DNA from: Promethearchaeota archaeon
GTDB lineage: Archaea; Asgardarchaeota; Heimdallarchaeia; Hodarchaeales; Hodarchaeaceae
Assembly: GCA_048938105.1 (NCBI GenBank)
Contig: JBHLMN010000013.1
Coordinates: 1-64,000 of the forward strand
DNA: 64,000 nucleotides
Reading direction: 5' to 3'
The first letter of the stretch is position 1; the number at the start of each line of letters is the position of its first letter. The notes beneath the pieces were generated by a model, which saw only the letters and a program-made list of their open reading frames with translations, searched no databases and was not told the origin of the DNA. The translations under genes and the position numbers were made by a program. Positions 47,299 through 63,389 of the stretch are shown here, in pieces.

Positions 47299-47454
47299 TT
47301 ATACTGAGTTCTGTACAAGAAGAATTTCAAAGAATACATCATTTAATGCATCCTTGGGGAAACATTCGGAAAAACATGTGCAATATCTGCAATTTGGATA
47401 GAAATCCTTACAAATTCTTTCTTTAATTATTTTAGATTTTGCATATTTTTTCAT
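47299..47454 (-). CDS. Cys-rich microprotein copy A (51 aa), stand-alone C-x6-C-x2-C-x5-C Fe-S-loop motif; not in the ORF track
   Basis: MKKYAKSKIIKERICKDFYPNCRYCTCFSECFPKDALNDVFFEILLVQNSV*; SD GAAGGTG; paralogous to 62867-63079 and 63192-63389. Confidence 0.85.
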   Translation of the reverse strand: MKKYAKSKIIKERICKDFYPNCRYCTCFSECFPKDALNDVFFEILLVQNSV

Positions 47455-47477
47455 TTATTTCACACCTTCTTACTTAT

Positions 47478-47549
47478 TTTTTCTTCTTATTTTACAAATA
47501 CTCTTCATAGAACATCTGACTTGTCTTTTGACCTTATCAGGTCAGGTAA
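47478..47549 (-). ncRNA. Conserved structured 5' leader, copy A (candidate cis-regulatory RNA)
   Basis: 69/72 identical to 62771-62842; hairpins UGACCU-GAUA-AGGUCA and CAGAUGUUCU-AUGA-AGAGUAUUUG. Confidence 0.6.
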
Positions 47550-47584
47550 AAATATAAAAAACAAGTTAATAAAATGTGAGTACA
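47530..47584 (-). promoter_or_regulatory. Shared regulon promoter of microprotein A
   Basis: TGTAC-TCACA-TTTTATTAA-N22-GACC-TGATAA-GGTC. Confidence 0.7.
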
Positions 47585-47783
47585 CAAATGAGATTTTTTT
47601 TTAAGATAATAACAATTTATTGATTCTCATAACATATAATCATAGTTTCATTAGTTATTTTAGGTGTACAATAATATCATACAATTTTTTCCGCTTTAGT
47701 GATATTAATGACACTTCATTATTGTCAAATGTATGAAAATTCGCAATTTCCTTATGCTTCAATGTTTATTATAGAAAATGTTA

Positions 47784-47843
47784 AATAATAATTAATTAAA
47801 AGTAATAATAATTAATTAAAAGTAATAATAGTTAATTAAAGGT
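47784..47843 (+). repeat. Three tandem 20-bp repeats (AATAATAATTAATTAAAAGT), probable operator array
   Basis: 47784-47803 and 47804-47823 are identical; 47824-47843 has 2 mismatches; about 100 nt upstream of 47942. Confidence 0.8.
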
Positions 47844-47941
47844 ATTATATATCCTCAACTAATATGAAAAGTTGTAATTGAATCAAGAGAGCATGTGAAA
47901 ACTAGTAAAAACAAAATCAATAATTAGAATAAGAAATAAAA

Positions 47942-48655
47942 ATGCAAAAAATTAAAGAGATCGATTTAATTGGAAATTCTTTGATCAAAAACCATAGGGA
48001 TATTCATAAACTTAACCATAACAAGCAAAACACAGTTTATAGGGTTTTCCTATATTTTTTTGACGAGATTGCAGGACACATTCCATTATTTAAATATCCA
48101 TCAACACCATTAAATGAGAAAGACAGACAAATACTCTCAATTCATAGTATTTGGTGGCACCAAGATAAATTCTTAACACCCTTCAAATTTAATTCAATCG
48201 ATCTTGAACTGGGAGGGATTACATATACCGCCACACTATTTCTTTGTCACACCCATAGAACAAGAAGACGATCTGGAATGGATTCAACTAAGTGGAAACC
48301 TGAAAGATTCGTTCTAATCGTAAAAATTCCTTCATTAGTCTCTTTTAGTACAAAAGAATTATTATTTAAGCTAAAATCAAGAATCCAAGGTGAAATTGGT
48401 GAAGATTTATGCTTTTTAGTAGAAAATTACATAAAAAAAACAGAGAATTCATATGTTGGTGACTTCATTGAAAAGAAATCTAGAGCTATTCTAAAACAAC
48501 TCACATCCTTATGTAAATCATTCAGTCCCAAAAAAAATAAAGTAAAAATCATAGCTAAACCAGAAAGAAAGACAATACAAGATATTCTTATAAATTCAGA
48601 TTCGAGAGAGATTAACGAATTACGATTTTCAATTCCTAAGCATAAGAATAATTAG
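47942..48655 (+). CDS. uDENN/longin-like domain protein
   Basis: VFLYFFDEIAGHIPLFKYP resembles the uDENN F-D-x3-G-P-x5/6-P start; later strands YTATLF and RFVLIV. Confidence 0.55.
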   Translation: MQKIKEIDLIGNSLIKNHRDIHKLNHNKQNTVYRVFLYFFDEIAGHIPLFKYPSTPLNEKDRQILSIHSIWWHQDKFLTPFKFNSIDLELGGITYTATLFLCHTHRTRRRSGMDSTKWKPERFVLIVKIPSLVSFSTKELLFKLKSRIQGEIGEDLCFLVENYIKKTENSYVGDFIEKKSRAILKQLTSLCKSFSPKKNKVKIIAKPERKTIQDILINSDSREINELRFSIPKHKNN

Positions 48656-48671
48656 GAGACTTGGAAACTTA

Positions 48672-49709
48672 ATGACCAAATTACTGAAAGATCCACTTAA
48701 TCTGAAATTGTTGTTACTCCTTTGTGCTGGAGAAGGAGTAAGTATAAATGTCAGTGCTCTCTCTCAACAATTAAATAAACATAGAAATACAGTTAATGAG
48801 AGAATAAAACAGCTTTTGAAATATAGAATTATTGAAAGACCTCTGTATCCTTTAATATGGTTGTTTAAAGAATATCCTCTATTGGTTGTCTCAAAAGATA
48901 AATTTTATCGGGATGAAGCAACCAAAAATTCTATTGAAAGCGACCCACATATCTTCGCTGCATTTTTCTTTCAAGAAGAGGTCTATAATACATTAACAAT
49001 TCAATTCCATGAAGACCTTTTTTCTTATGAAACTTGGTGTGATAAGATTTTACAGGAGGAAAAAATCATCAAAGAAGAGGATCGTCATCCTCCTGATGCA
49101 TTACTTTTCAGTACAAAACGTATTTTAAAGTATGACCCTTCAGCACCTTTTAGAATTATTAATCTAGGTTTTAAAAAAGGAAATATTAAGAAGATTGGTG
49201 ATCTTGAGCTAGATTCCTTATCTTTAAGAATCTTAAGAATGGCTTTAAATGGAAAAGCAATAAGAACAAATGAGAATTTTTTAGCACGAGCCCTAAATGT
49301 TAATAGAAATACTATTATTAGGAGGATTCAAACCTTACTAAAAGAAAATATAATCGGAAATCCTATTTCAAGATTCCCAAGAGTTATAGTCCCTCCCGAT
49401 TTCATGCTTATATTCTCTTTATTTGAAATTAGGAAAAATTGTGCAATTGTTGAGAGATTCATTAGAAACGATCCTCATGTTCCCCTCCTGATTAAAGCTA
49501 ATGTTGGAAGATACAACTATTTTGTCGCAAATACTTTTAGAACCATCGAGGATCACTTAGAATGGCAAGAGAATTATAATCAAAGGTTCCAAAACTGTAT
49601 AGATGGAATCAAGAACACTTACCTTTCTCCTGCAATGACCTTTGCTATTGGGCAAAATTTTGTCTCACTTGAACTCATTAGAAAGAAATTACAATTATTA
49701 CAGGGATAA
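48672..49709 (+). CDS. Tandem (double) Lrp/AsnC-like wHTH regulator
   Basis: Two HTHs (NVSALSQQLNKHRNTVNERIKQLLK; NENFLARALNVNRNTIIRRIQTLLK), each followed by a DPH-containing RAM-like domain. Confidence 0.8.
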   Translation: MTKLLKDPLNLKLLLLLCAGEGVSINVSALSQQLNKHRNTVNERIKQLLKYRIIERPLYPLIWLFKEYPLLVVSKDKFYRDEATKNSIESDPHIFAAFFFQEEVYNTLTIQFHEDLFSYETWCDKILQEEKIIKEEDRHPPDALLFSTKRILKYDPSAPFRIINLGFKKGNIKKIGDLELDSLSLRILRMALNGKAIRTNENFLARALNVNRNTIIRRIQTLLKENIIGNPISRFPRVIVPPDFMLIFSLFEIRKNCAIVERFIRNDPHVPLLIKANVGRYNYFVANTFRTIEDHLEWQENYNQRFQNCIDGIKNTYLSPAMTFAIGQNFVSLELIRKKLQLLQG

Positions 49710-49811
49710 AAATTTTTTATTTTTAATTTGGTTCGGATCTTCCATCTTAAATTAATTCAGCCTTCTTCTAATTCCTTTCTTATAGCTCCTATGCAGATAT
49801 CAGTTTATATA

Positions 49812-50387
49812 TTAGTTTTCCTTTAATAATTTTGCGTTTTGCTCTCCTAATAGTGAAACTAAGAAGTCTATGATTTTATCTATCGCATTCAATACTTCGA
49901 ATGATATTTCAGAGCCAAAGTCAAGGTTTTTTGGTTTGATCCCTAATATTCGTATTAATACTCCTGATTGATTTTTCATGTAATCTACCAAGACTTTCAT
50001 CGGGATGAGATGAGTACTTAACGTTGCCTGTTTGTTTTCGAGATCTGATGGTTTAAAAAAGCCAATAGTACCAGCTGGGATCTCATTATTTCCAAATTGA
50101 ACAGCATCAATTATTAAACAATGAGTAACATTTTCTTTTAAAAGAACAGAAAGAAAATTTTCCAAAGATCCTCCTACATTGTATATTAGAAATTTATTAT
50201 TACGTTCCATTCGTAACTTATGATAAATCATTGGACCTAAACCATCATCTCCTCTCAAATCATTCCCAACACAAAAGATACTTAATTTGCCTTTTTTCGC
50301 AGCCTTGAGAAATGAAAAGAATTCCAGCATATCAAACACATTATCTAAAATAACAATGATATTAAAAGACTTATTTTTCAGTGTCAA
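49812..50387 (-). CDS. hycI: Hydrogenase maturation protease (HycI family)
   Basis: CVGNDLRGDDGLG, IIDA, STH and LGIKP..LDFG motifs; alternative start ATG 50330. Confidence 0.9.
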   Translation of the reverse strand: MTLKNKSFNIIVILDNVFDMLEFFSFLKAAKKGKLSIFCVGNDLRGDDGLGPMIYHKLRMERNNKFLIYNVGGSLENFLSVLLKENVTHCLIIDAVQFGNNEIPAGTIGFFKPSDLENKQATLSTHLIPMKVLVDYMKNQSGVLIRILGIKPKNLDFGSEISFEVLNAIDKIIDFLVSLLGEQNAKLLKEN

Positions 50388-50813
50388 TTGTAATCAATAC
50401 TATTGCTAAGAGTATTTTGCCCACTATAATGTGATTGACTAATTTCTTTAATCTAAGATTTAATATCAAGTTATTTTGCATACCATTAGCTATTGGAGTA
50501 TTTATTATGGAATAACTATCAGCTCTTAAGTAATTACTTATAAAGGGCAATATCTAAGAAAATAATATTACTTATAAGCTCATTAAAGATATACACTTAA
50601 TTTGTATGAATAATAAGATAAAAATAATGATTTAAGGTATTATCACAGAAATGTGTCAAAATTGTATATTTTAAGTCTATAAAAACTACAAAAACACCAT
50701 AATTATTTTTGAAACTGTTCAATATTTTTGTATAATTTATTCCAATTTCAATCGCGTAATATATGTTTTTTATATTTATTTTTGTTATTTTTTGACATAA
50801 ATTCCTTAATTTT

Positions 50814-50868
50814 TGTACACATGATTTATTATTTGCTTTTTCTTATAATTACTCGACCATTATTGGAA
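50814..50868 (+). promoter_or_regulatory. Shared regulon promoter of the malic enzyme/hydrogenase operon
   Basis: TGTAC-ACATG-ATTTATTAT-N22-GACC-ATTATT-GGAA, with the same spacing as three other promoters. Confidence 0.6.
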
Positions 50869-50896
50869 GTACTTCATAAATAAGAAGGAATAATTA

Positions 50897-52288
50897 ATGG
50901 CAAAAGAAAGTGTTGAAGACCTACTCAAAAAAGCTGATATTCCTAATCAAAAGGCTGAATTATGGCATCCATATTATCGAGGAAAGATCGAAGTTGTTTC
51001 AAAAGTAAAAATCGATAATTTTGACGATTTTGCTGTTTGGTATACACCCGGAGTGGCAAGACCGTGCAAAATCATAGAAAAAGAAATGAAAGTTGCAAAA
51101 GCACAGAATTGGTCTTATAACTCGGTGTATGACTTGACGAATAAGTGGAACAACGTTGCAGTTGTATCTGATGGCAGTAGAGTCCTGGGATTAGGTGATA
51201 TTGGTCCTGAGGCTGCTATGCCCGTGATGGAGGGTAAAGCGTTATTATTTAAATATCTTGGAGGCGTAGATGCGTTTCCAATTTGTTTAAATTGTCATAA
51301 TGCCAATAAAATAATTACAACGGTAAAATGTATTCAGCCTAGCTTTGGTGGAATCAATTTAGAAGATATTTCTCAACCAAAATGCTTCAAAATACTCGAT
51401 GCTCTTCGTAGTGATAAGGATGTTCATATTCCTGTTTGGCATGATGATCAGCAAGGGACAGCAACCATTATTGTAGCAGGCATGTTTAACGCCTTAAATT
51501 ATCTCGATAAGAAATTAAATGAGGTAATTATTTCTATGGTTGGGGCAGGAGCTGCTAATATGGCAGCTGCTAGAGTTATGATAAGTTCTGGAGTCCCTAA
51601 AAAGAATATCATCATGATAGATTCTAAAGGAATTCTACATCCCGAAAGAAAGGATATTGAAGTAGTTAAGAAAAAATATAGTTTAAAATGGGATATTTGT
51701 CTCAATTCTAATGGTGAAGGAAGAGTAGGAGATATGTTTGATGGAATGAAAGACACAGATATGGTAATTGCGGCTAGTAAACCTGGTCCTGGAGTTATAA
51801 AACCAGAACATATTCAAGCAATGGCAGACGATCCAATTGTATTTGCTTGTGCCAACCCAGTTCCTGAGATATGGCCTTGGGAGGCAAAAGAGGCTGGAGC
51901 TGTGATAGTAGCCACTGGTCGATCTGATTTCCCAAACCAAGTGAATAACAGCCTTGGTTTTCCTGGAATCTTTCGAGGAACACTTGATGTGATGGCAATT
52001 ACTATTTCAGATGAAATGTGCATTGCTGCAGCTAAGGAATTGGCAAAAACAGCTCAAGATAAAGGATTAGAACCAAACTACATTATACCCTCAATGGATG
52101 ATTGGGAAGTATTTCCTCGAGAAGCAGTAGCAGTAGGTCAGCAAGCAATCAAAGAAGGTATTGCTAGACTTAAACTAACTCGTCAAGAAGCATATGAACA
52201 CGCTGAAATCCTTATTAGACGAGCAAGAGAGCAAACTCATTCATTGATGGATTTAGGATATATTTTGAAAGCTCCCTCAATTTATTAG
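50897..52288 (+). CDS. NAD(P)-dependent malic enzyme
   Basis: [47 protein letters not shown] and [13 protein letters not shown] motifs. Confidence 0.95.
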
Positions 52289-52338
52289 AAGTATTAATAT
52301 CAAATTTCGCTTGAAAAAAAAAGGAAAATGTAAAATTT

Positions 52339-52737
52339 ATGGCAGAAATAAATGCGGAAGAAACACCTAAAGGTTTTCCACTTAAATTAAATGGGTTAAA
52401 AACTTGCTTACCTTCAAATGGAATAGACACCTCCTCACCTCTAGCTGAATCCTTCGAACGTTGTTCTTATTTTGTTATTGCAGATTTAAACCGTCAGGAA
52501 ATCACAAGTTTTGTGAATTATGTTCAAACATTTCCAAGAGGTGAGAGTATTCAAACAGCGCAAATGATAATCGATCAACAAGTCGAAACAGTAATTGTAC
52601 CTGAAATCGATTCCAGCACTTTAAATATCCTTCAAAAAGCAGGAATAAAAATCTTTTTAGGTATTGATGGAACCATTCAAGAAAATATCGATTTATTTAG
52701 TCAGGGACGATTAGTTGAGATAAAAATCTCCAATTGA
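52339..52737 (+). CDS. NifB/NifX-family (FeMo-cofactor-binding-like) protein
   Basis: FERCSYFVIAD, TAQMI...VETVI, LQKAGIKIF..G.L motifs. Confidence 0.8.
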   Translation: MAEINAEETPKGFPLKLNGLKTCLPSNGIDTSSPLAESFERCSYFVIADLNRQEITSFVNYVQTFPRGESIQTAQMIIDQQVETVIVPEIDSSTLNILQKAGIKIFLGIDGTIQENIDLFSQGRLVEIKISN

Positions 52738-52874
52738 ATTTCTCAAACAAATCTAGGAGGTGTTTGAAGGAAAGAAAAGTGAGATAACTTTATATTAATG
52801 TTCCTTAGAATAAAATTTCAAACAAAGAAGCAATTTTTCTTCTACTTTTTCAAGCTATTTATGGTGTTTAATCC

Positions 52875-53222
52875 TTGGAATTCTTAAACGAGGTTCTACC
52901 AGCATTAATAGTTGCAATTATTGCAGTATTATGTTTGTATGGCTTCGCTAAATGGTTAAATATTGGGAGGTTCCAGACAACGAGATTAAAACAACAACTA
53001 TATCAAAGCGGAGAGACCATACTTCCTCGAAAGCGGCGTTACTTGGATCAAACATTTATTTGGATATCATACTTTTCTACAGCTCATGTTATATCATTTA
53101 TGTTTGCTACATTGTTGATTCTTTCTCTAGGTATAAGAATTAACATATTTTATCCTTTTGTGTATTTTGTTATAACTTCATATGCAATTTTCATGTTAGC
53201 AATAAAAACACCAGAGTCATAA
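52875..53222 (+). CDS. Membrane subunit, NuoA-like
   Basis: Three TM helices with a KQQLYQSGE loop (cf. NuoA K..PYECG); first membrane gene of the cluster. Confidence 0.7.
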   Translation: MEFLNEVLPALIVAIIAVLCLYGFAKWLNIGRFQTTRLKQQLYQSGETILPRKRRYLDQTFIWISYFSTAHVISFMFATLLILSLGIRINIFYPFVYFVITSYAIFMLAIKTPES

Positions 53223-53241
53223 ATTAAAGAGGTGTTATTAT

Positions 53242-53679
53242 CTGATAAATAGGAAAAAACTTGCAGTAAAAGCCTTAACAAACAGTCCATGGGTGGGACA
53301 TCTTAATTGTGGCTCCTGTAATGGATGTGACATTGAAGCATTGTCATTATTTGTTCCTCGATATGATGTTGAAAGATTTGGCATTATTTTAGAAGGATCA
53401 CCTAGACATTGCGACATCCTATTGGCAACAGGTGCAGTTACCAACCAATACATCCTAAGATTGAAACGTATTTATGAGCAAATGCCCGATCCAAAATTCG
53501 TGATTGCAATTGGTAATTGTGCAAGTACTGGGGGTGTTTACCAAGAAACCTATAACACACTAGATGGGGTAGATAAGGTGGTACCTGTTGATATCTATAT
53601 ACCAGGTTGCCCACCTCGTCCTGAAGCTATTGTTGATGGTGTTATCAAATTAATTAACAAAATTCGGCTTGATTTTTAA
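53242..53679 (+). CDS. Group 4 [NiFe]-hydrogenase small subunit (NuoB/MbhJ-like), probable CTG start
   Basis: SPWVGHLNCGSCNGCDIE, SPRHCD, GNCA..GG and PGCPPRP; the conserved SPW lies upstream of the track start. Confidence 0.92.
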   Translation: MINRKKLAVKALTNSPWVGHLNCGSCNGCDIEALSLFVPRYDVERFGIILEGSPRHCDILLATGAVTNQYILRLKRIYEQMPDPKFVIAIGNCASTGGVYQETYNTLDGVDKVVPVDIYIPGCPPRPEAIVDGVIKLINKIRLDF

Positions 53680-53697
53680 GATATAAGTATTAATTAT

Positions 53698-55467
53698 TTG
53701 GTGATTTTAGAAATGGAAGAAATTAAGCCTGAAACACTAGAGGATGTCGTAAAAAACCTAAATCTTTCAGTTCGTGAATCATCTGGGTTTCCACTGGATT
53801 TATATGTTACAGTTCAACCAGAAAGTCTAATCAAAGTAATAAAACAGCTAAAAGAAAAATATAATGTTACACATCTTTTAACAATCATTACTCAAGACCA
53901 AACGGATAGTTATAACTTACTTTATCCGTTCTCCATAAATTTAAGGAATCAGAAAAGTGGGAAATTAATTTTGGATCTCAAGCTTGATAAAAATGATCCA
54001 AAAATAAGTTCAATTGTAACAGAAATACCTGGAGCTATTTTATATGAGCGAGAAGTCTATGATATGATGGGTATCACGTTTTTAAACCATCCTGGTCTCC
54101 AGCGTTTATTAACACCCGATTCTTTGCCAAATTACATTTACCCCTTAAGGAAAGATATTACTTTTACGGAAATTCGTGAGAGATTAGCTGAATCAAGGAA
54201 AGAAAGAGAAGCTGAAAAAGAGCTAAAGGAATATATAAAGCGAGAGTATGTTGATTTTACTTCTGAAAGATCTGATTACTCAATATCTGTAGGGCCTCAA
54301 CATCCCTCTTTGGAAGAACCAATTCGTTTTATTTTTCATGTCAAAGGGGAGACTGTTAAAGCCATTGATTTGCGTTTAGGATTTTCTCATCGAGGGATAG
54401 AAAAGGCATTTGAAAGTCGTACATGGATGCAAAACCTCTATTTAGCTGAAAGAATATGTGGGATATGCAGTGATGCTCATCAATTATGTTATGTCCAAGC
54501 TGTAGAGAAATGTGCTGAATTAACTGAAGTAATACCAGAACGAGCACAGTATATTCGAGTAATAATGGCTGAACTTGAACGTATACACTCACATTTATTA
54601 TGGTATGGAATTCTAGCCCACGATACTGGCTTTGATACAATGTTTCAATACACTTGGCGAGATAGAGAAATTGTGATGGATATTCTGGAGGAGATCTCTG
54701 GGAACCGTGTTAATTATGCTATGCATACCATTGGCGGGGTTCGCCGAGACATTGATTCAGAAGTGACAAAAGTCAAAATTATTCCAAAATTAAAAAATCT
54801 TCGAAAAAGGGTTGAAAAGCATAAAAAAATGATAATCCAGCAAAGAAGTTTTATTTCTCGTCTAAAAGGCATAGCAATATTAACAAGAAAAGATGCAGCA
54901 CGTTTTTGTGTTGTGGGGCCAACTGCTCGAGCTAGTGGAATAAATATTGATGTTCGAAAAAATGATCCTTATGGTGCTTATGATCAGCTCTCGTTCAATA
55001 TTCCTCTTTTAACTGAAGGTGATATTTTAAGTGGATTAATAAATCGCTTAGATGAAAGTCTTATCTCTATAGATCTAGTAATTGATGCACTCAAAGCCTT
55101 GCCTCCAGGTAATTTAACAATTAAAGTACCTCGACAAATTCCTGTAGGAGAAGGAATGAGTTGTGTTGAAGCACCAAGGGGAGAGAATGTGCATTATATT
55201 CGATCGAATGGTAAGAATAATCCAGAACGTCATAAAGTTCGTGCTCCAACCCTCGCCAATATGCCAAGTTTGGTATATCGATTAATTGGTGTACAAGTAG
55301 CAGACATTCCTCCTGTCATCCGAGTCATCGATCCATGCATCGGTTGTATGGATAGAGTCACTTTCATAGACTCAGGAAAAGGAAAAAAGCTTGATTTATC
55401 AGGAAATCATTTAATAAGTCGGGCAAATCGTGCTTATCGTTTGGGTACTAAAATTCTTGACTTTTAA
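53698..55467 (+). CDS. Group 4 [NiFe]-hydrogenase large subunit, fused NuoC/NuoD-like
   Basis: EREVYDMMG (C module), GPQHP, L1 ERICGICSDAH, EAPRGE, L2 DPCIGCMDR plus a 36-aa C-terminal extension. Confidence 0.95.
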   Translation: MVILEMEEIKPETLEDVVKNLNLSVRESSGFPLDLYVTVQPESLIKVIKQLKEKYNVTHLLTIITQDQTDSYNLLYPFSINLRNQKSGKLILDLKLDKNDPKISSIVTEIPGAILYEREVYDMMGITFLNHPGLQRLLTPDSLPNYIYPLRKDITFTEIRERLAESRKEREAEKELKEYIKREYVDFTSERSDYSISVGPQHPSLEEPIRFIFHVKGETVKAIDLRLGFSHRGIEKAFESRTWMQNLYLAERICGICSDAHQLCYVQAVEKCAELTEVIPERAQYIRVIMAELERIHSHLLWYGILAHDTGFDTMFQYTWRDREIVMDILEEISGNRVNYAMHTIGGVRRDIDSEVTKVKIIPKLKNLRKRVEKHKKMIIQQRSFISRLKGIAILTRKDAARFCVVGPTARASGINIDVRKNDPYGAYDQLSFNIPLLTEGDILSGLINRLDESLISIDLVIDALKALPPGNLTIKVPRQIPVGEGMSCVEAPRGENVHYIRSNGKNNPERHKVRAPTLANMPSLVYRLIGVQVADIPPVIRVIDPCIGCMDRVTFIDSGKGKKLDLSGNHLISRANRAYRLGTKILDF

Positions 55468-55482
55468 TGGAGAAATAAATGA

Positions 55483-56622
55483 ATGCCATCTATTAATTCT
55501 GTATTAAGACCTCTGATTTTTTTCATGATTTATTTCCTAATTATAGCCAGTTTATTCTTTTTTTTTCAAGAATCTCCTGAGATGATTATTCTCTTGAAGT
55601 ATTTTCTCTTCCCAGGTATTCTTTTTATTTTTACTGGGGCTTTATTTTATAATTGGTTTGAACGGAAAATTTACGCTCGGATGCAAAACCGAAAAGGCCC
55701 CCGATTAATTCAACCTGTTTACGATGTTCTTAAACTACTCGTTAAAGAAGATATTACACCAAATGGTGTTGATACGCCTGAATTCAATGTAATTCCCCCA
55801 ATTCAATTACTTTTAGCACTCTTATTGGCCTTCTTTTTACCAATATATATAGCAGAAGGATTAATCTCTTTTGATGGTGATTTGCTTTTTTTGCTATTTT
55901 TATTGGCAGTGTTATCAGGATCAATCTTTTTGCTTGGATGGGCTAGTAACAATCCATATGGTTTACTTGGAGGATCTAGAGCTGCAATTGCAGAATTATC
56001 ACTCGAAATTCCGTTAACCATAGCTTTTATTGCCCCTGCTATCTTAGCAGGGTCACTCCGTATCTCAAATATCGTTCAGAGCGAATTCAATCTAATTGAT
56101 ATTCCCTTGAATGTAATCTTTCAAATGAATGATTTTTCTATTCATCATCTGTTGTATTTAATTCCTCTTTCTCTTCTCTTCTATATTGCAGTATTGTCTG
56201 CAAATGCAGTCCTAGAAAAAGTTCCATTCGATCCAGCTCACGCAGAAGTTGAAATTGTTGGTGGTTGGACAGTAGAACTTAGTGGGAAAAAGCTTCTTTA
56301 CATTCGCCTTGCAAATTTAGTAACGGAATTTGCAATTGCAGGGATTATAGCAACTATTTTCTTAGGTGGTCCAGGATTTAGTCCATTAAACAAAATGTTC
56401 GATGGGATTCTAATTGTTGGACGATGGGATGTATTTTATTATATTATAAACTTTTTAACCTTTATTATTAAAACTACACTATGTATTTTTTTTATTACGA
56501 TTAGCCGTACAGTTCTATCCCGCCTTCGAATTGACCAATTAGTTCAATATTTTTGGCGGTATTATTTACCTGTTTCTTTCTTTGCATTAATAGTGATAAT
56601 CTATCTAGCAGGAGTAATTTAA
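55483..56622 (+). CDS. NuoH/MbhM-like membrane subunit
   Basis: ERKIYARMQNRKGP, QPVYDVLKLLVKE and PFD..AE.EIVGG..VE.SG motifs. Confidence 0.93.
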   Translation: MPSINSVLRPLIFFMIYFLIIASLFFFFQESPEMIILLKYFLFPGILFIFTGALFYNWFERKIYARMQNRKGPRLIQPVYDVLKLLVKEDITPNGVDTPEFNVIPPIQLLLALLLAFFLPIYIAEGLISFDGDLLFLLFLLAVLSGSIFLLGWASNNPYGLLGGSRAAIAELSLEIPLTIAFIAPAILAGSLRISNIVQSEFNLIDIPLNVIFQMNDFSIHHLLYLIPLSLLFYIAVLSANAVLEKVPFDPAHAEVEIVGGWTVELSGKKLLYIRLANLVTEFAIAGIIATIFLGGPGFSPLNKMFDGILIVGRWDVFYYIINFLTFIIKTTLCIFFITISRTVLSRLRIDQLVQYFWRYYLPVSFFALIVIIYLAGVI

Positions 56623-56624
56623 AG

Positions 56625-57083
56625 ATGGTTAAAATACCTGATCTTTTTCCTGTGTTAAGTGAAGTTACTCGGAATTTAATAAATAAAACAGTTACAGTCG
56701 AATTTCCTTTTGAGAATGTAAAAGTTCCAGATGGATATAGAGGGGCACCAGAAGTCAATCCAAAGCTATGTATTGTTTGTAAAACTTGTGAAAAAATATG
56801 CCCAACACATTGCATTGAGATTATCCCTGTGAATCCCAGTGAAATTGCAGATTATTCTCAGGAGAAAGGAATTCCCTTTTGCTTTTCAATTAACCTTTCA
56901 CAATGTATGTTTTGTCAGGAATGTGAGAAATCTTGTCCAGTAGGTAAGAAAGGAGAATCTGCTATAAACCTTAATTCAAGTCGATGGTTAATGGCTAATT
57001 ATAAAATTGCAGATACAACTGAAAAAAAACTTGTTTATCAGAGACCTAAGAGAAAAAAGAAAATTAACGCTCAAGGAAGTTAA
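56625..57083 (+). CDS. NuoI/MbhN-like 2x[4Fe-4S] subunit
   Basis: YRGAP, CIVCKTCEKICP and CMFCQECEKSCP; start ATG 56625. Confidence 0.93.
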   Translation: MVKIPDLFPVLSEVTRNLINKTVTVEFPFENVKVPDGYRGAPEVNPKLCIVCKTCEKICPTHCIEIIPVNPSEIADYSQEKGIPFCFSINLSQCMFCQECEKSCPVGKKGESAINLNSSRWLMANYKIADTTEKKLVYQRPKRKKKINAQGS

Positions 57084-57088
57084 ATCCA

Positions 57089-57373
57089 ATGGCATCGGTC
57101 GAAGTAGTAATCTTAACTATATTTACAATAGCAATGGCGGCTGCAGCGCTTGAGGTGGAAAATATAACTCGTTCTATCCTTTGTTTAGCGCTTTCGTCTA
57201 TTGGAGTTGGTTCTATATTCTTTTTTGTTGGTGCTAGTTATGCTGCCGTTTTTGAATTCGTTCTTTATGCTGGTGTTTTAATAATTTTGTTTATTGTTGC
57301 AGCTAGTTTAACTGAAATCACCGAAAAAGAGACTATTGGAGAGGATCTCTTGATAAAGGAGATAAAATCATGA
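57089..57373 (+). CDS. NuoJ N-terminal-half-like membrane subunit
   Basis: GASYAAVFEFVLYAGVLIILF. Confidence 0.85.
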   Translation: MASVEVVILTIFTIAMAAAALEVENITRSILCLALSSIGVGSIFFFVGASYAAVFEFVLYAGVLIILFIVAASLTEITEKETIGEDLLIKEIKS

Positions 57374-57642
57374 ATAATAAGGAAGTATTAGGAAGAATCG
57401 GATTTGCTATCATTGGCTTTATTTTGTTAGTTCTTATTGTTGATGCACAAGATAGTGGAGCTTGGGCAACCTTACAAACTGTGAAACCAAATTTAGCAAA
57501 CGAAAGGAGTTTGGGGTTATTATGGACCACTCTAGCAACCTCAACTATAATTCAAGGTTTTATGCTTTATGCAGCCCTTTTGGGTTCAAATTTACAGTTC
57601 TCGCCACCAACAAAAGAGAGAGAAAAAGAGGAGGAGTCTTAA
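57370..57642 (+). CDS. Small membrane subunit, probable NuoJ C-terminal half
   Basis: Two TM helices, LGLLW; ATGA overlap with the preceding gene. Confidence 0.65.
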   Translation: MNNKEVLGRIGFAIIGFILLVLIVDAQDSGAWATLQTVKPNLANERSLGLLWTTLATSTIIQGFMLYAALLGSNLQFSPPTKEREKEEES

Positions 57643-57974
57643 TGGCGTTTTCTGTAGATTCTTTCACTGATTTTGAAATTTTACTAGCTTTATCGTTTAT
57701 CATGCTCTTAATTGGTATTTATGGCCTAATTACAAAACGTTTAGCTATTAAAACAATAATGGCTTTAGAAATCCTTGTTACTGCACCTAATATAGCATTT
57801 ATTGCTTTTGGTTTTACTCAAAATACAAATATAGATCCACAGACACAGGCTTTTGTAATTATATCCTTATCAGTTGGGGCTGCCGTTATTGGTCTGGCTT
57901 TAGCTTTTCTTCGCAATTTGTACAAACACTTCGAAACAACTGAAGTGGACGCTTTTACAACACTTAAAGGATGA
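57642..57974 (+). CDS. NuoK/MnhC-like subunit
   Basis: IGIYGLITKR...IMALEI, DPQTQAFVI, LKG end; start ATG 57642. Confidence 0.88.
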   Translation: MAFSVDSFTDFEILLALSFIMLLIGIYGLITKRLAIKTIMALEILVTAPNIAFIAFGFTQNTNIDPQTQAFVIISLSVGAAVIGLALAFLRNLYKHFETTEVDAFTTLKG

Positions 57975-57975
57975 G

Positions 57976-59946
57976 GTGGCTAAAAATATGTCCAGCTGGC
58001 GAATAACAACTTTTGAAAACCTTATTGATGTTTCTCTTCAACCTTGGTTTTTAGTTTTCGCTATTCCCATTGTTGGAGCATTTTGTTCACCAATTGTAGG
58101 TAGATTTAATTCAACTCTACGTAATTTTTTTTCAATTGCAACAATCGGGATTTCAACCCTACTTGCAGGATATCTGGTTGCACTTGGAACTGCAGAAGAA
58201 CATATAATATTATTCGTTCCAACAATTATTAACAATTCAACTTTTGATTTTTTCTGTAATTCAATAAATCTTGACGCTTTAGGTGTCTTTATCGCTCTAA
58301 TTGCATCAGGATTGGGTTTCTTAATAGCAATTTTTTCATTAGAATATATGAAGGAAGACACAGCTCAAGGAAGATATTATTTTTTCCTCCAGCTTTTTAT
58401 TGGTGGAATGGTTCTTCTTGTTCTTGCTGGGGATTTGATATTCCTGTACTTTGGCTGGAAAATGGTAGGAGTGTGTAGTTATTTCCTAATTGGTCACTGG
58501 TTTCATAAACCTGAACCACAAGGTTCTTTATGTGCGAAGTCAGGAATGAAGGCCTTTCTTATGACACTTGTAGGTGATATTGCTCTTTTGATTGCACTTG
58601 GAATCCTATGGTTTGAATTAGACACAATTAATATTAAAATCATAACTCAAGCGTTTAATTCAGGAGTAACATCTGGACTCCAAACATTCGTTGCTTTACT
58701 CATTCTTCTTGGGGCAATTAGTAAATCAGCGCAATTTCCATTCATTACATGGTTAAGTAGTCCAAGAGATATTAATATTGATGCCATGCAGGGCCCTACA
58801 ACCGTCAGTGCACTCATACATGCCGCAACTATGGTAAAGGCGGGAGTTTATCTTATTTCAAGGTTTTATATGGTTTTTGCGCCAGTAAACATAACATTTT
58901 TTATCATGATCATTTCACTTATCGCTGCGATTACTGCATTGATAACTGCAGCTTCAGCTTTAGCATCCATTGATATTAAGCGTGTATTGGCTTATTCAAC
59001 TGTTAGTCAACTAGCCTATATGTTTATGGGCCTCTCTATTGGCTTTTTAGCTTATATTGAGAAACCAATAATTAGCATCGAAGGTTTTATGGGGACTCAG
59101 TTCCATCTATTGTCACATGCAATATTCAAAGCTCTTCTCTTCCTTTCAGCAGGAGCAATTATACATTCTTTAAATGAAGAAAGGAATATTAAATGTATGG
59201 GTGGATTAAAAGATGAATTACCAATTATTCATTGGACAACATTAATAGGAATATGTGCTTTAGCTGGTGTTCCATTCTTCTTTAACGGTGGATATAGTAA
59301 AGAGGCGATATTAGGCTCAATAGTTAACTTCGTTTTTAGTGGTGCAAAATTAGCTCTTTTTGGATGGATAATTTATGGGGCTGGTATGATAACAGTAATT
59401 TTAACATCGTTATACGCTTTTCGACTCTTTTTTCTAATTTTTTATGGCAAAAAGTCAGAAAGTTTGAAAGTAAACAAACCTGGCTTTATTATGCGGGGAG
59501 TGACATCCTTTTTAGCAATTCTTGTTGTTATAACTGGATTTATTGGGCCTATTCTTTTAAATACCCATTTTAGACCAATGTTTAAGAATTCAGAATATCA
59601 TTCACCATTAATATACATTCCTGATCCTTTACATCAGCCATTAGCTTTTATCAACATGGTTATTGTAATTGGATTGGTTATTATCGGATTTGGTCTTAGT
59701 TATCACATTTACTACAAGGGTCCAAGAACGATTATGCCTACTGTTCAGAAGAACTGGATTCTTAACGCTTTCCATACCATAATTATAGAGGGATTTTATC
59801 TAGATACGATTTACAACGAGCTCATAGACTTATTCATGTTTTTAAACTGGAAACTTCGAAAGTTACAGACTGGGGATCTCAATTTTAACATGGCAGGAGT
59901 AGGTATGATAGCTATTCTAATAATCATAACTTTATTGTTATTTTAA
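57976..59946 (+). CDS. NuoL/MnhA-like antiporter subunit
   Basis: SYFLIGHW, KAF, KSAQFP, AMQGPTTVSALIHAATMVKAG, IKRVLAYST, HAIFKALLF and LQTG motifs. Confidence 0.93.
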   Translation: MAKNMSSWRITTFENLIDVSLQPWFLVFAIPIVGAFCSPIVGRFNSTLRNFFSIATIGISTLLAGYLVALGTAEEHIILFVPTIINNSTFDFFCNSINLDALGVFIALIASGLGFLIAIFSLEYMKEDTAQGRYYFFLQLFIGGMVLLVLAGDLIFLYFGWKMVGVCSYFLIGHWFHKPEPQGSLCAKSGMKAFLMTLVGDIALLIALGILWFELDTINIKIITQAFNSGVTSGLQTFVALLILLGAISKSAQFPFITWLSSPRDINIDAMQGPTTVSALIHAATMVKAGVYLISRFYMVFAPVNITFFIMIISLIAAITALITAASALASIDIKRVLAYSTVSQLAYMFMGLSIGFLAYIEKPIISIEGFMGTQFHLLSHAIFKALLFLSAGAIIHSLNEERNIKCMGGLKDELPIIHWTTLIGICALAGVPFFFNGGYSKEAILGSIVNFVFSGAKLALFGWIIYGAGMITVILTSLYAFRLFFLIFYGKKSESLKVNKPGFIMRGVTSFLAILVVITGFIGPILLNTHFRPMFKNSEYHSPLIYIPDPLHQPLAFINMVIVIGLVIIGFGLSYHIYYKGPRTIMPTVQKNWILNAFHTIIIEGFYLDTIYNELIDLFMFLNWKLRKLQTGDLNFNMAGVGMIAILIIITLLLF

Positions 59947-59958
59947 GGTGGTACAATC

Positions 59959-61491
59959 ATGATTGTGATCTTTGGACTAAATATTACATTAATTACTTTC
60001 GTTATTATCCCCCTTTTTTTTTCATTTTTTCTTATACTTTTAGAAAAGTTATTTTCATCCTCACGGTTAAAAAAGAATTTTATTCATATAATAGCATTAA
60101 TTGGGGCATTATTTGATTTACTTCTTGCTTTTCTTTTCTGTTCCGAGATCCTGAAGACTGGAAAAGAATTTTTTATAGATACTTCTTTCCTCGTTTTAAA
60201 AACTGATATCACATCTCTCTTTTTTATACTGATTTTTACAACAATTCATTTTACTGTATCCATTTATTGTGTCAATTTTATGGATCAATTCGATGACCTT
60301 GCTATTTTTTATGCGTTATTATTTGCATTAGTAACAGGTCTTAATTTGATAGTTATGGCTTCTGATTTTTTCACGCTTTTCGTAGCTTATGAGGGAATGG
60401 CATTATGTGCTTATTCCATGGTTGGATTTTACCGTAATCTAGAATCATCTGAAGCAGGATTTAAGTATCTGATGATGAGCTCAACTGGAAGCCTCTTATT
60501 ATTATTCGGCTTAGCCTTACTGTATGGAGTAGTAGGAAGCCTTAATTTTGCCTACTTGTCAACTGCCAACTTAGATAACAATTTGATGTTATCTTTAGCG
60601 ATTATCTTGATGGTTCTTGGATTTGGAATAACAGCTTCGATGTTCTTCTTAAATACTTGGCTTCCAGATGCTCATCCTGCCGCACCACCACCTGCTAGTG
60701 TCATTCTATCAGGAATTGTAGTTATCGCAGGGACATATGGATTATTAAGAACTTTCACTCTTCTTATAATTCCTTTAAACATCAATTCAGAACTATCATG
60801 GTCTAATCTGTTTATACTTATCGGTATTTTTACATCATTACAAGGGAATCTCTTTGTACTCATTCAATTCAAGAGAACTGATTCGCAGGCAAGAAATCTT
60901 AAACGGATATTAGCTTTTTCAACAATTTCACATATGGGCTACCTATTAACTGGAATAGGTACTGCTAATATCATGGGTATAAGCGGAGTTCTACTGCATG
61001 CTCTCAATCATGCAATTGCAAAAGGAATTATGTTTATGATTGCAGGTTATCTTATTTTTTCTGGAGGTTCGCATTGTCTCGATCATTATAAGGGATTAGG
61101 CCGTCAAGATCCAGTGATTGGAACCTGTTTAGTTATTGGTTTGTTTTCATTGGCCTCAATACCTCTTACTGGTGGTTTCTGGTCGAAATTACAGCTAATA
61201 CTTGGTCTTTTTGAAAATGGTTATCCCTTCGGAATATTCGCAGGTGTAAGTATGCTTGGATTAACTTTTTTCGCTGCAATAGGTTACCTTTGGATAATCA
61301 AATATATTGTTATGGATCATTCAGATATGGATTTAGAATATATTCATAATTTTAAGAAGATGAATCTAAGAAGGGGCGGATTTATGAAGTTAGCGATTAT
61401 CATATTGACATTAATTGTGGTTATTCTCGGATTATTACCAGGTCCATTCATAAATTTAACATTACAGGCTGCACATTATCTATTTGGATAA
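59959..61491 (+). CDS. NuoM/N (MnhD-like) antiporter subunit
   Basis: EAGFKY, WLPDAHPAAP, LKRILAFSTISH and PLTGGFWSK motifs. Confidence 0.92.
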   Translation: MIVIFGLNITLITFVIIPLFFSFFLILLEKLFSSSRLKKNFIHIIALIGALFDLLLAFLFCSEILKTGKEFFIDTSFLVLKTDITSLFFILIFTTIHFTVSIYCVNFMDQFDDLAIFYALLFALVTGLNLIVMASDFFTLFVAYEGMALCAYSMVGFYRNLESSEAGFKYLMMSSTGSLLLLFGLALLYGVVGSLNFAYLSTANLDNNLMLSLAIILMVLGFGITASMFFLNTWLPDAHPAAPPPASVILSGIVVIAGTYGLLRTFTLLIIPLNINSELSWSNLFILIGIFTSLQGNLFVLIQFKRTDSQARNLKRILAFSTISHMGYLLTGIGTANIMGISGVLLHALNHAIAKGIMFMIAGYLIFSGGSHCLDHYKGLGRQDPVIGTCLVIGLFSLASIPLTGGFWSKLQLILGLFENGYPFGIFAGVSMLGLTFFAAIGYLWIIKYIVMDHSDMDLEYIHNFKKMNLRRGGFMKLAIIILTLIVVILGLLPGPFINLTLQAAHYLFG

Positions 61492-61702
61492 CTTCTAATA
61501 TTTCCACATTTATCAAATAAGATATTTTTAAAATATAAACGTGTAATAAATGAGAATTTTATATTTAAAGAAAATATAATTTTGATAATATTTTTCCTTC
61601 ATATATGAAACATTGATTTACATGAAAAGGGCAGAAATCAATACTAATCATATGTCTTAAAATTCAGTGGGGACGAAATCTTCCAAGAAATAAGATTTAT
61701 TC

Positions 61703-61757
61703 TGTACATATATTTTATTAACTCATTATTGGTATTTATAATCGACCCTTGTTGGTC
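61703..61757 (+). promoter_or_regulatory. Shared regulon promoter of the small-ORF cluster
   Basis: TGTAC-ATATA-TTTTATTAA-N22-GACC-CTTGTT-GGTC. Confidence 0.7.
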
Positions 61758-61785
61758 AAGCTAAATCTAATTTGGGATAATACAG

Positions 61786-61932
61786 ATGAAAAGTATTAGC
61801 GAACAGAAAGAAAATTTACGATCATCCACAGATAATAAACGAATTTCAAAAGATATTAGACTTAGAAATCAAGATCATGAAACTAAATGGTTGCCAAAAA
61901 GAGGTAACCATTACGTTATAATTGAATGGTGA
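61786..61932 (+). CDS. 48-aa hypothetical microprotein (below the track cutoff)
   Basis: MKSISEQKENLRSSTDNKRISKDIRLRNQDHETKWLPKRGNHYVIIEW*, just downstream of a regulon promoter, weak SD GGGA. Confidence 0.5.
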   Translation: MKSISEQKENLRSSTDNKRISKDIRLRNQDHETKWLPKRGNHYVIIEW

Positions 61933-61997
61933 CATGTCCATCTGATTCATTACCCAATATGAAATTTAATAATCCATGAATAAGAGGATGATCAGAA

Positions 61998-62210
61998 TTG
62001 GCACTTAAAAACGATTTAGTAACTTCACATAATTTAATACTCAGTTTTATTCTATTATCAAGCATTTATATGATTGTATTTGACTGGAGAATTATTATTT
62101 TCGCCATTATTATAGTCTCAATATTTGGAGGCTATTTGGCTTTTATCTCTGTAGGATTCATGGATTTAGATTATAGAACAAAAAATGAAAAAAAGAATTT
62201 GGAAGAATGA
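61998..62210 (+). CDS. Small two-TM membrane protein
   Basis: SD GAGGA, TTG start, two hydrophobic helices. Confidence 0.6.
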   Translation: MALKNDLVTSHNLILSFILLSSIYMIVFDWRIIIFAIIIVSIFGGYLAFISVGFMDLDYRTKNEKKNLEE

Positions 62211-62446
62211 AAATGACAATAAAAGAAGGAATATACCCATTCTCTCAAACAACATTAAGAAAAGATCGTGTTAGTTCATTAGAACTAAATAGTGTGAGAT
62301 CTAAAGCCATATTAGAGCAAAATTACATGAGTTTAAAAGGTTTAGACGACGAACTTTTTAAAACTCTTTCAGAGAAATCGTTTAAAGAAGCTAAAGAAGT
62401 CACGTATGAATTAATTGAAGAAGATAATGAAAATCCTTATCTATAA
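62207..62446 (+). CDS. Small hypothetical protein
   Basis: ATGA overlap with the previous ORF. Confidence 0.6.
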   Translation: MKMTIKEGIYPFSQTTLRKDRVSSLELNSVRSKAILEQNYMSLKGLDDELFKTLSEKSFKEAKEVTYELIEEDNENPYL

Positions 62447-62735
62447 GGTATTTTCTTGATCTTTATCTTAACCAAAGACAAGATACAGAGAATCAATCGT
62501 TAAACTAAAGGAACCAATCAATCTAGGGAAATAATCGTCTAAGTTCAAAATGTCAATTAATACGTATAAAACTGGCATCTATGATATCAATCATCTTATT
62601 CATTCTTTCAAAAGAGACATTTCATTTCTATCTTATTAATCAATATTAATGTACATAAAGTACCTATCTTAATCTTGTAGTTATTTGTTTTTTAATTCTA
62701 TAATTTAGATTTTTCTCACATAATCGTTTTTTTTT

Positions 62736-62790
62736 TGTACATACGTTTTATAAATTCTTGATTAATATAATTACCTGACCTGAAAAGGTC
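62736..62790 (+). promoter_or_regulatory. Shared regulon promoter of microproteins B/C
   Basis: TGTAC-ATACG-TTTTATAAA-N22-GACC-TGAAAA-GGTC. Confidence 0.7.
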
Positions 62791-62842
62791 AAAAAACAAG
62801 TCAGATGTTCTATGAAGAGTATCTGTAAAATAAGAAGAAAAA
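62771..62842 (+). ncRNA. Conserved structured 5' leader, copy B (candidate cis-regulatory RNA)
   Basis: Hairpin UGACCU-GAAA-AGGUCA (GNRA loop) and 10-bp stem 62802-62811/62816-62825 with an AUGA loop; 69/72 identical to copy A. Confidence 0.6.
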
Positions 62843-62866
62843 TTGATCAAGGAGGATTTGAAATAA

Positions 62867-63079
62867 ATGATGAGCCTACCGCGATCTAAAGAAGTTAAAG
62901 AAAAAATTTGTAAGGATTTCTTTCCAAACTGCACATATTGCACTTGCTATAGCATGTGCTTTCCCACAAATGAAACAGAAGATTTATCATCTCAAGCTCT
63001 CTTAGAACAAGAAAAAGCATTTAGAGAAGCACAATTATCATCAGAAACCCTAGTTGGTTTGAAAGAATCAACTACTTAA
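62867..63079 (+). CDS. Cys-rich microprotein copy B (70 aa), C-x6-C-x2-C-x5-C
   Basis: KEKICKDFFPNCTYCTCYSMCFP; SD GGAGG. Confidence 0.85.
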   Translation: MMSLPRSKEVKEKICKDFFPNCTYCTCYSMCFPTNETEDLSSQALLEQEKAFREAQLSSETLVGLKESTT

Positions 63080-63191
63080 CTAAATAGCTAAGTACTTCCA
63101 GATATATAATTAAACAAAATCACAAGCTAGAAGTTCTATTAAGACTATCAACAAAATAAGAAGAAAATAAGAGCAAGAAGGTATGAAATAA

Positions 63192-63389
63192 ATGATGGAT
63201 CCAAAAGCAAAAGAAAAAATTTGTAAAGATTTCTATCCAAATTGCAGATATTGCACTTGCTTCAGTATGTGCTTCCCTAATTGTCTAGCTCAAGATGTAT
63301 CATCTCAAGCCCTTTTAAGACAAGAAAATAGGAGAATAAAGGAATCACATATAACGCCCAGGGTTTCTTTAGTACTAAATAATTCTTAG
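63192..63389 (+). CDS. Cys-rich microprotein copy C (65 aa), tandem paralog of B
   Basis: KEKICKDFYPNCRYCTCFSMCFPNC; SD GAAGGT; degenerate leader at 63122-63167. Confidence 0.85.
   Translation: MMDPKAKEKICKDFYPNCRYCTCFSMCFPNCLAQDVSSQALLRQENRRIKESHITPRVSLVLNNS

Follow-up and report, generated by a model that had tools for sequence, protein, structure and literature searches.

Cysteine-rich microproteins of a Hodarchaeales genus and the promoter cassette they share with a malic enzyme/hydrogenase operon

The subject of this report is a family of cysteine-rich microproteins, three of which (A, B and C) are encoded in the first 64,000 nucleotides of contig JBHLMN010000013.1 (assembly GCA_048938105.1), a stretch of Hodarchaeales DNA that we refer to as the window. 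The family is real, previously undescribed and narrow in range, in that it is confined to one genus. An exactly spaced promoter cassette, common to the microprotein genes and to a malic enzyme/H2-evolving hydrogenase operon in the window, makes it very likely that these genes are co-regulated; as read from the DNA, the basis of the hydrogenase connection is co-regulation, not adjacency.

A family of genuine microprotein genes

The members in the window are these (aa, amino acids):

47299..47454, minus strand: microprotein A, 51 aa, five-Cys type; assigned by paralog comparison and an ortholog in L025
62867..63079, plus strand: microprotein B, 70 aa, five-Cys type; assigned by paralog comparison and a near-identical relative, P0002
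63192..63389, plus strand: microprotein C, 65 aa, five-Cys type; without a cassette of its own, retains part of the leader

A, B and C are clear paralogs: tblastn comparisons between copies return E-values of 1e-14 to 1e-21, against 0.005 for the best unrelated match. The three paralogous open reading frames (ORFs) and the common core that the initial annotation had recognised therefore stand, at the positions it had given; all three have ATG starts and Shine-Dalgarno-like GAAGG/GGAGG elements. The same tblastn search found a fourth paralog, D, on another contig (G000:C50:27692-27874, minus strand; equivalent to L001:9692-9874, minus strand). D has four conserved Cys only, lacks the extra Cys and has no cassette; its neighbours are heme O synthase, a CcmF-like gene, a multiheme cytochrome c and a SufR-like regulator, and a comparable heme/cytochrome c setting recurs in L029 and L101.

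All five Cys are retained between A and B, and the fourth and fifth of their codons differ synonymously (TGC/TGT), a pattern from which selection on the motif had been proposed. A 24-codon core compared across 19 copies bears this out: mean synonymous difference (pS) is 0.70 and mean nonsynonymous difference (pN) 0.18, both uncorrected (pN/pS ~0.26), codons vary at the third position in 23 of 24 cases versus 10 of 24 for the first, and TGT and TGC interchange freely at every Cys. All of this indicates that selection acts on the protein. Microprotein A is 81% identical to its L025 ortholog versus 50-57% to paralogs B and C; orthologs in different species are thus closer than the paralogs are to one another, so the copies predate speciation. 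Public gene callers also predict several relatives of A, B and C. Selection and conservation leave us all but certain that these are genuine microprotein genes. A copy at L023:10001-10198 combines a C-like N-terminus with a B-like tail, which suggests a recombination product inside an ancestral B-C tandem.

Searches of protein collections and of genome and metagenome contigs produced 36 distinct cores; the proteins that contain them are ~45-90 aa long, apart from a single gene call that runs upstream and reaches 134 aa, and no member found there carries a functional name. A profile search of 399 Asgard genomes located the family in eight, all from the window's genus; the sole match outside the genus (E 1e-3) is without the motif. 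Neither A, B and C nor any of the 31 aligned members has a meaningful match in Pfam or NCBIfam. A PDB sequence search gave chance matches only (E>0.5), the best ESM Atlas match scored 0.81, which is a lead-level score only, and viral contigs hold no relative. Among proteins of 155-2000 aa we found no longer or fused homolog, which is weak evidence by the search tool's own caveat. Literature searches for the family or for a stand-alone loop returned nothing. Across the databases and literature searched there is no annotation, family model, solved relative or paper for this family, in agreement with the initial annotation, whose author had recognised none.

Several weak matches were inspected and dismissed as chance because the motif is absent (P0011, P0012, G005:C228 and G064:C78); another, in L031 (E 7e-4, gut bacterium), was set aside as chance, a judgement made without inspection. 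A divergent relative in L037:9995-10153 and L038 has three further Cys/His-rich motifs, an acidic tail, no cassette and an unrelated neighbourhood. The locus in L024 (JBHLRO010000005.1) is also present in G001, a genome of the window's genus.

Promoter cassette and hydrogenase operon

The cassette, TGTAC-N5-TTTTAT-N24-YGACC-N6-GGTCR, measures 56 nt in all but one case. A matrix for the full cassette, trained without the window genome's own sites, identifies exactly four sites in this 5.85-Mb genome, all of them in the window, and the next site scores 2.3 bits. A matrix for the operator alone returns many weak genome matches; it is the full cassette alone that discriminates. The sites and their accompanying boxes are:

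47529..47584, minus strand: cassette of A, 65.8 bits
47665..47670, no strand: second TGTACA box of A, 86 nt upstream of A's cassette
50814..50869, plus strand: cassette of the malic enzyme-hydrogenase operon, right arm degenerate, 25.4 bits
61703..61758, plus strand: cassette before a pair of small ORFs, 37.5 bits
62650..62655, no strand: second TGTACA box of B, 86 nt upstream of B's cassette
62736..62791, plus strand: cassette of B, probably also of C, 81.5 bits

Microprotein C is probably co-transcribed with B, sharing B's cassette. Elsewhere, the cassette stands upstream of 17 of 18 five-Cys copies and of none of six four-Cys copies, and the second TGTACA recurs 84-87 nt further upstream in nearly all microprotein promoters. 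Malic enzyme follows the cassette in G003, G012 and G014, and an OsmC-like gene does so in L035 and G004. The exact pattern occurs in 12 of 18 genomes of the genus and in 0 of 12 others, with one control match; the matches in G006 and G011 look like chance. In G020:C47 (L041:6919 and 11626, minus strand) the cassette lies before a malic enzyme pair and before a different group 4 hydrogenase operon, which is led by Fe-S and CCG-domain genes.

The YGACC/GGTCR palindrome could function as an operator, as a hairpin at the 5' end of the RNA, or in both ways. Malic enzyme promoters retain the left arm without its partner, which favours a DNA element or initiator; the arms in the microprotein leaders differ mostly by G-U wobble or compensatory change, which favours a hairpin. 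Nothing in Rfam comes near the gathering score. The leaders of A (47478-47549) and B (62771-62842) are nearly identical, and the ORFs that follow them are only ~50% identical; in L024, L026 and L033 the leader's second part is missing or cut short.

The genes of the operon and its surroundings are as follows:

49812..50387, minus strand: HycI-type hydrogenase maturation protease
50897..52288, plus strand: malic enzyme, first gene after the cassette
52875..61491, plus strand: complex I-like group 4 [NiFe]-hydrogenase genes (NuoA,B,CD,H,I,J,K,L,M/N-like)
61998..62446, plus strand: two conserved small ORFs, a 70-aa membrane protein and a 79-aa acidic protein, cassette-driven

The hydrogenase large subunit retains both CxxC motifs and, with the HycI-type protease nearby, is that of a true group 4 [NiFe]-hydrogenase, as had been annotated. 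A NuoBCDI arm, membrane subunits, CxxC motifs and a HycI protease are likewise common to Heimdallarchaeia group 4 (4j/4m/4p/4q) hydrogenases (bioRxiv 10.1101/2024.07.04.601786); the passages of that preprint consulted make no mention of a microprotein, promoter cassette or regulator.

The initial annotation had described the microproteins as bracketing the hydrogenase operon. They do flank it on both sides, if loosely: A is 5.4 kb and five genes away from the first hydrogenase gene, and B begins 1.4 kb past the last one. Hydrogenase genes are also found within 1.6 kb of four of the 18 five-Cys loci elsewhere, all in one inherited arrangement like that of B/C; in L021, L023, L033 and L075 the copies of B/C type come 1.4-1.5 kb after the end of the last hydrogenase gene. 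In four of the seven genomes with cassette-driven copies (G001, G004, G013 and G014; 89-95% complete) an ortholog of the hydrogenase large subunit was undetected, the best matches being 34-35% identical or none. The functional tie that had been proposed therefore survives as a common promoter cassette, and a dedicated partnership is not supported, both because of these four genomes and because the steadiest neighbour is a different gene, the Lrp-type regulator described below.

The acidic C-terminus of the 79-aa protein is conserved, and the small-ORF pair is without a family match. Several genomes of the genus have homologs of the pair, among them G008 and G009, in which there is no Cys microprotein. 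A kinship between the microprotein and the 79-aa ORF at 62207, based on an 'S-x-A-L-L-E-Q' likeness, was not accepted (hhalign probability 9%).

A tandem Lrp-type regulator and other neighbours

The most consistent neighbour of the microprotein family is the following gene:

48672..49709, plus strand: tandem Lrp/AsnC-fold protein (HTH-RAM twice), likely cassette regulator by fold and linkage

Its relatives lie within 0.7 kb of eight of the 18 five-Cys loci, in three arrangements (divergent, downstream and upstream), and 3-4 kb away in two more; three loci end less than 0.5 kb past the microprotein gene. This regulator is present, at identities of at least 66%, in each of the seven genomes that have cassette-driven copies. 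Near the six four-Cys loci there is no regulator and no hydrogenase. The doubled HTH-RAM model of the protein has a predicted local distance difference test score (pLDDT) of 89, with Foldseek E-values of 1.6e-10 to NirDL (PDB 4ch7) and 4e-6 to PH0061. NirDL is a tandem-Lrp enzyme that has the doubled HTH-RAM fold in common with the 48672 protein, at an identity of only 12%; both HTH recognition helices of the latter retain R-x-T, which favours DNA binding. From this model the protein is a presumptive transcription regulator, and its linkage and matching distribution make it, on balance, probable that it reads the cassette. The 48672 protein has a paralog at contig position 76877. Co-folding of A with this regulator and a 4Fe-4S ligand (score 0.14, mark 0.32) was not used as evidence either way.

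A conserved 237-aa gene with no Pfam family (47942-48655, plus strand) lies between A and the regulator and is retained in G003, G012 and G014. Often found beside the microproteins are NifX/FeMo-co-domain genes and a HycI gene. Beyond the window, L002:5494-17945 holds two glutamate dehydrogenase genes, split glutamate synthase-like genes, an HdrA-MvhD-like fusion and a second tandem-Lrp regulator; these assignments come from sequence inspection only, and comparable genes are seen again close to the family's members elsewhere in the genomes compared.

Metal binding, alternative readings and known systems

The family motif is C-x2-F-(Y/F)-P-x-C-x2-C-x5-C-(F/Y)-P, in which C, F, P, C, C, C and P are invariant among the 31 aligned members. 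The initial annotation had likened it to the loop of endonuclease III (EndoIII) and MutY, in which C-x6-C-x2-C-x5-C is the ligand set of a [4Fe-4S] cluster (PMC11722440). We compared 36 microprotein cores with 27 Asgard EndoIII loops. The spacing is common to both, being conserved in the 31 aligned members, and so is the Pro at x5 (36/36 cores, 27/27 loops), an Ile preceding Cys1, and a hydrophobic or Cys residue two after the third Cys. When the spacing and this Pro were searched for in six frames of the 5.85-Mb genome, eight instances emerged: four from the family, three of EndoIII type and one in a stray frame. The extra, fifth Cys, at first regarded as a defining feature, does not hold as one: it is kept in 30 of 36 cores and is F, V or L in the other six, D included. 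Since this position aligns with I/L/V of the Asgard EndoIII loops, the fifth Cys is probably a packing residue and not a ligand.

In other respects the two differ. EndoIII is an HhH-GPD glycosylase, and the microproteins have no HhH body. Their loops average 0.5 Lys/Arg and a net charge of -0.5, versus 2.1 and +2.0 in EndoIII, and 4.8 aromatics per core versus 0.9. Positions 3-4 are F and Y/F where EndoIII has DNA-contacting basic residues; contact between basic loop residues and DNA is described for MutY/EndoIII (PMC11722440). A loop so aromatic, slightly acidic and poor in Lys/Arg argues that an EndoIII-type DNA-binding role has been lost. The Pfam model of the EndoIII loop, PF10576, matches none of the 31 members at E<=10, and a genome search with it finds only the three EndoIII-type proteins and no microprotein; a PROSITE-type pattern fits none of 36 cores versus 18 of 27 EndoIII loops. 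By the available tests, then, the microproteins are not PF10576 family members and the supposed kinship falls away, even as the ligand set may still work alike. We also discarded a kinship with eukaryotic CXC/tesmin domains, suggested by the YCxCF pentapeptide: the spacing differs, the second of those Cys is unconserved and there is no Pfam match. A metal-free AlphaFold2 model describes a helix, the Cys loop, a short helix and a helix, at low confidence (pLDDT 62; predicted template-modelling score 0.31), and fold searches with this low-confidence model gave nothing significant. An A-type copy at L048:5301-5450 (G012:C111), additional to the 31 aligned members, has Tyr in place of Cys2 and His in place of the final Pro, and is possibly decaying; the second Cys of E. 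coli MutY is a substitutable ligand (PMC11722440).

We consider it highly probable, from conservation in sequence, that the four conserved Cys bind a metal, and we lean slightly towards that metal being one [4Fe-4S] cluster, by analogy with known ligand sets. The invariant aromatics would then substitute for the large glycosylase body in packing about the cluster, and the C-terminal helix after the Cys loop would contact a partner. We envisage the microprotein as a status reporter resembling the WhiB-like (Wbl) proteins of Actinobacteria: the holo form would persist under anoxia or iron sufficiency, exposure to O2 or NO would lead to cluster loss, and the state of the cluster would tune the Lrp regulator, or another partner, that controls a fermentative, H2-producing regulon. 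Hodarchaeales are predicted to combine aerobic respiration with H2-evolving complex I-like hydrogenases (bioRxiv 10.1101/2024.07.04.601786), so that an oxygen switch would be useful. Taken as a whole, this chain, a WhiB-like [4Fe-4S] redox/O2 reporter within an anaerobic H2-producing regulon, is a tentative proposal that we put somewhat below even chances. A bolder version is improbable: that Hodarchaeales own an O2 switch unrelated to FNR/WhiB, in which a ~50-residue [4Fe-4S] microprotein, possibly excised from the EndoIII loop, gates the tandem Lrp regulator of the malic enzyme/hydrogenase regulon, with a sister subfamily attending heme/cytochrome c genes.

Several points weigh against the reporter proposal. 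Binding of Zn, Cu or Ni, or the formation of disulfides, is just as open to a peptide with four or five Cys. The Cys spacing could be convergence or coincidence, bearing in mind that column similarity to EndoIII loops is at chance level without the Pro (p=0.41; p=0.06 with it); the L048 copy, moreover, is without the second Cys and the last Pro. Regulon membership makes the microproteins outputs, to which a sensing role would be an additional step. No microprotein was detected in G010, which has a hydrogenase ortholog, or in G020, whose hydrogenase genes are cassette-driven; this indicates that the regulon can do without the microprotein in at least two species. All of the genomes belong to one genus and are close kin, so that co-occurrences are not independent, and no statistic is given for them.

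The alternative that we take most seriously, although we consider it unlikely, is that the microproteins bind Zn, Cu or Ni, or cycle between thiol and disulfide, as metal/redox buffers or chaperones expressed with the hydrogenase regulon. Such a role would suit four to five Cys packed within 17 residues, with the extra Cys in 30/36 cores, a regulon that includes an OsmC-like protein (L035, G004), and the NifX/FeMo-co-domain and HycI genes that often adjoin. A spacing kept strictly at 6-2-5, together with the invariant F, P and aromatics, nevertheless suggests a fixed fold and not a metallothionein, and the microproteins have no His-rich or CxxC-pair knuckles, which typify Zn ribbons or Ni chaperones. 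Dedicated [4Fe-4S] carriers, stores or accessory subunits for assembly or activity of the group 4 hydrogenase would explain both the promoter cassette common to the operon and the B/C-type copies 1.4-1.5 kb past the hydrogenase in L021, L023, L033 and L075; this reading is quite improbable, in that G001, G004, G013 and G014 have cassette-driven copies with the large-subunit ortholog undetected, the linkage is essentially one inherited arrangement, and D-type copies sit among heme/cytochrome c or unrelated genes.

It is less likely still that the selected unit acts mainly at the level of RNA or translation, as a riboswitch-like 5' leader or a Cys-rich leader peptide that senses cysteine supply for a downstream gene. 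The leader is highly conserved between A and B, the GACC/GGTC arms vary mostly by G-U wobble or one compensatory change, and four loci have the ORF immediately ahead of a regulator gene that runs in the same direction; however, selection on the ORF is at the amino-acid level with Cys codons varying freely, many copies are followed by convergent genes and so have nothing to attenuate, four-Cys copies retain the protein motif without the leader, malic enzyme promoters keep a left arm with no pairing partner, and no Rfam match reaches the gathering score. Least probable of all, at the margin of consideration, are precursors of ribosomally made modified peptides of the sactipeptide/ranthipeptide type. 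These too are short and Cys-rich, and the B/C-type copies of the window contig, L022, L023 and L102 have a radical SAM gene close by. Its product, however, is an enzyme of ~310-320 aa with a Radical_SAM match only (no SPASM-type maturase), has no cassette and is absent from most loci, and the microproteins have no conserved leader, transporter or protease.

If a [4Fe-4S] cluster is bound, as the reporter proposal requires, few natural stand-alone cluster proteins with EndoIII ligand spacing would be smaller than these microproteins, which would also offer a scaffold on which to study an EndoIII-spaced motif without its enzyme. The cassette defines a concrete regulon of regulator, operator, malic enzyme, hydrogenase and microproteins. 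The host belongs to an uncultured lineage central to eukaryote origins, the Hodarchaeales being the closest archaeal relatives of eukaryotes, and how that lineage changes over between aerobic respiration and H2 production is a standing question; the restriction of the family to one genus limits the significance of the finding.

The family is best filed as small four-Cys metal or Fe-S proteins, outside the EndoIII loop and Wbl families. Archaea have no sigma factor, so any partner of the microproteins must differ from that of Wbl proteins. The microproteins are also shorter (45-90 aa versus 80-140 aa) and differ in having a gap of six between the first and second Cys; the G[V/I]WGG motif is absent from the alignment of 31 members, and the Wbl model PF02467 gives no match. 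What the two have in common is that they are small stand-alone proteins, with several paralogs per genome, four Cys that end in Cx2Cx5C, and aromatics near the Cys. In Wbl proteins the Cx2Cx5C triad is the [4Fe-4S] ligand core, partner binding relies on aromatics around the cluster, and the proteins sense O2 and NO and act via partner proteins (PMC7363131). We regard Wbl proteins as the best functional analogy for the microproteins, the two being, in our reading, analogous and not homologous.

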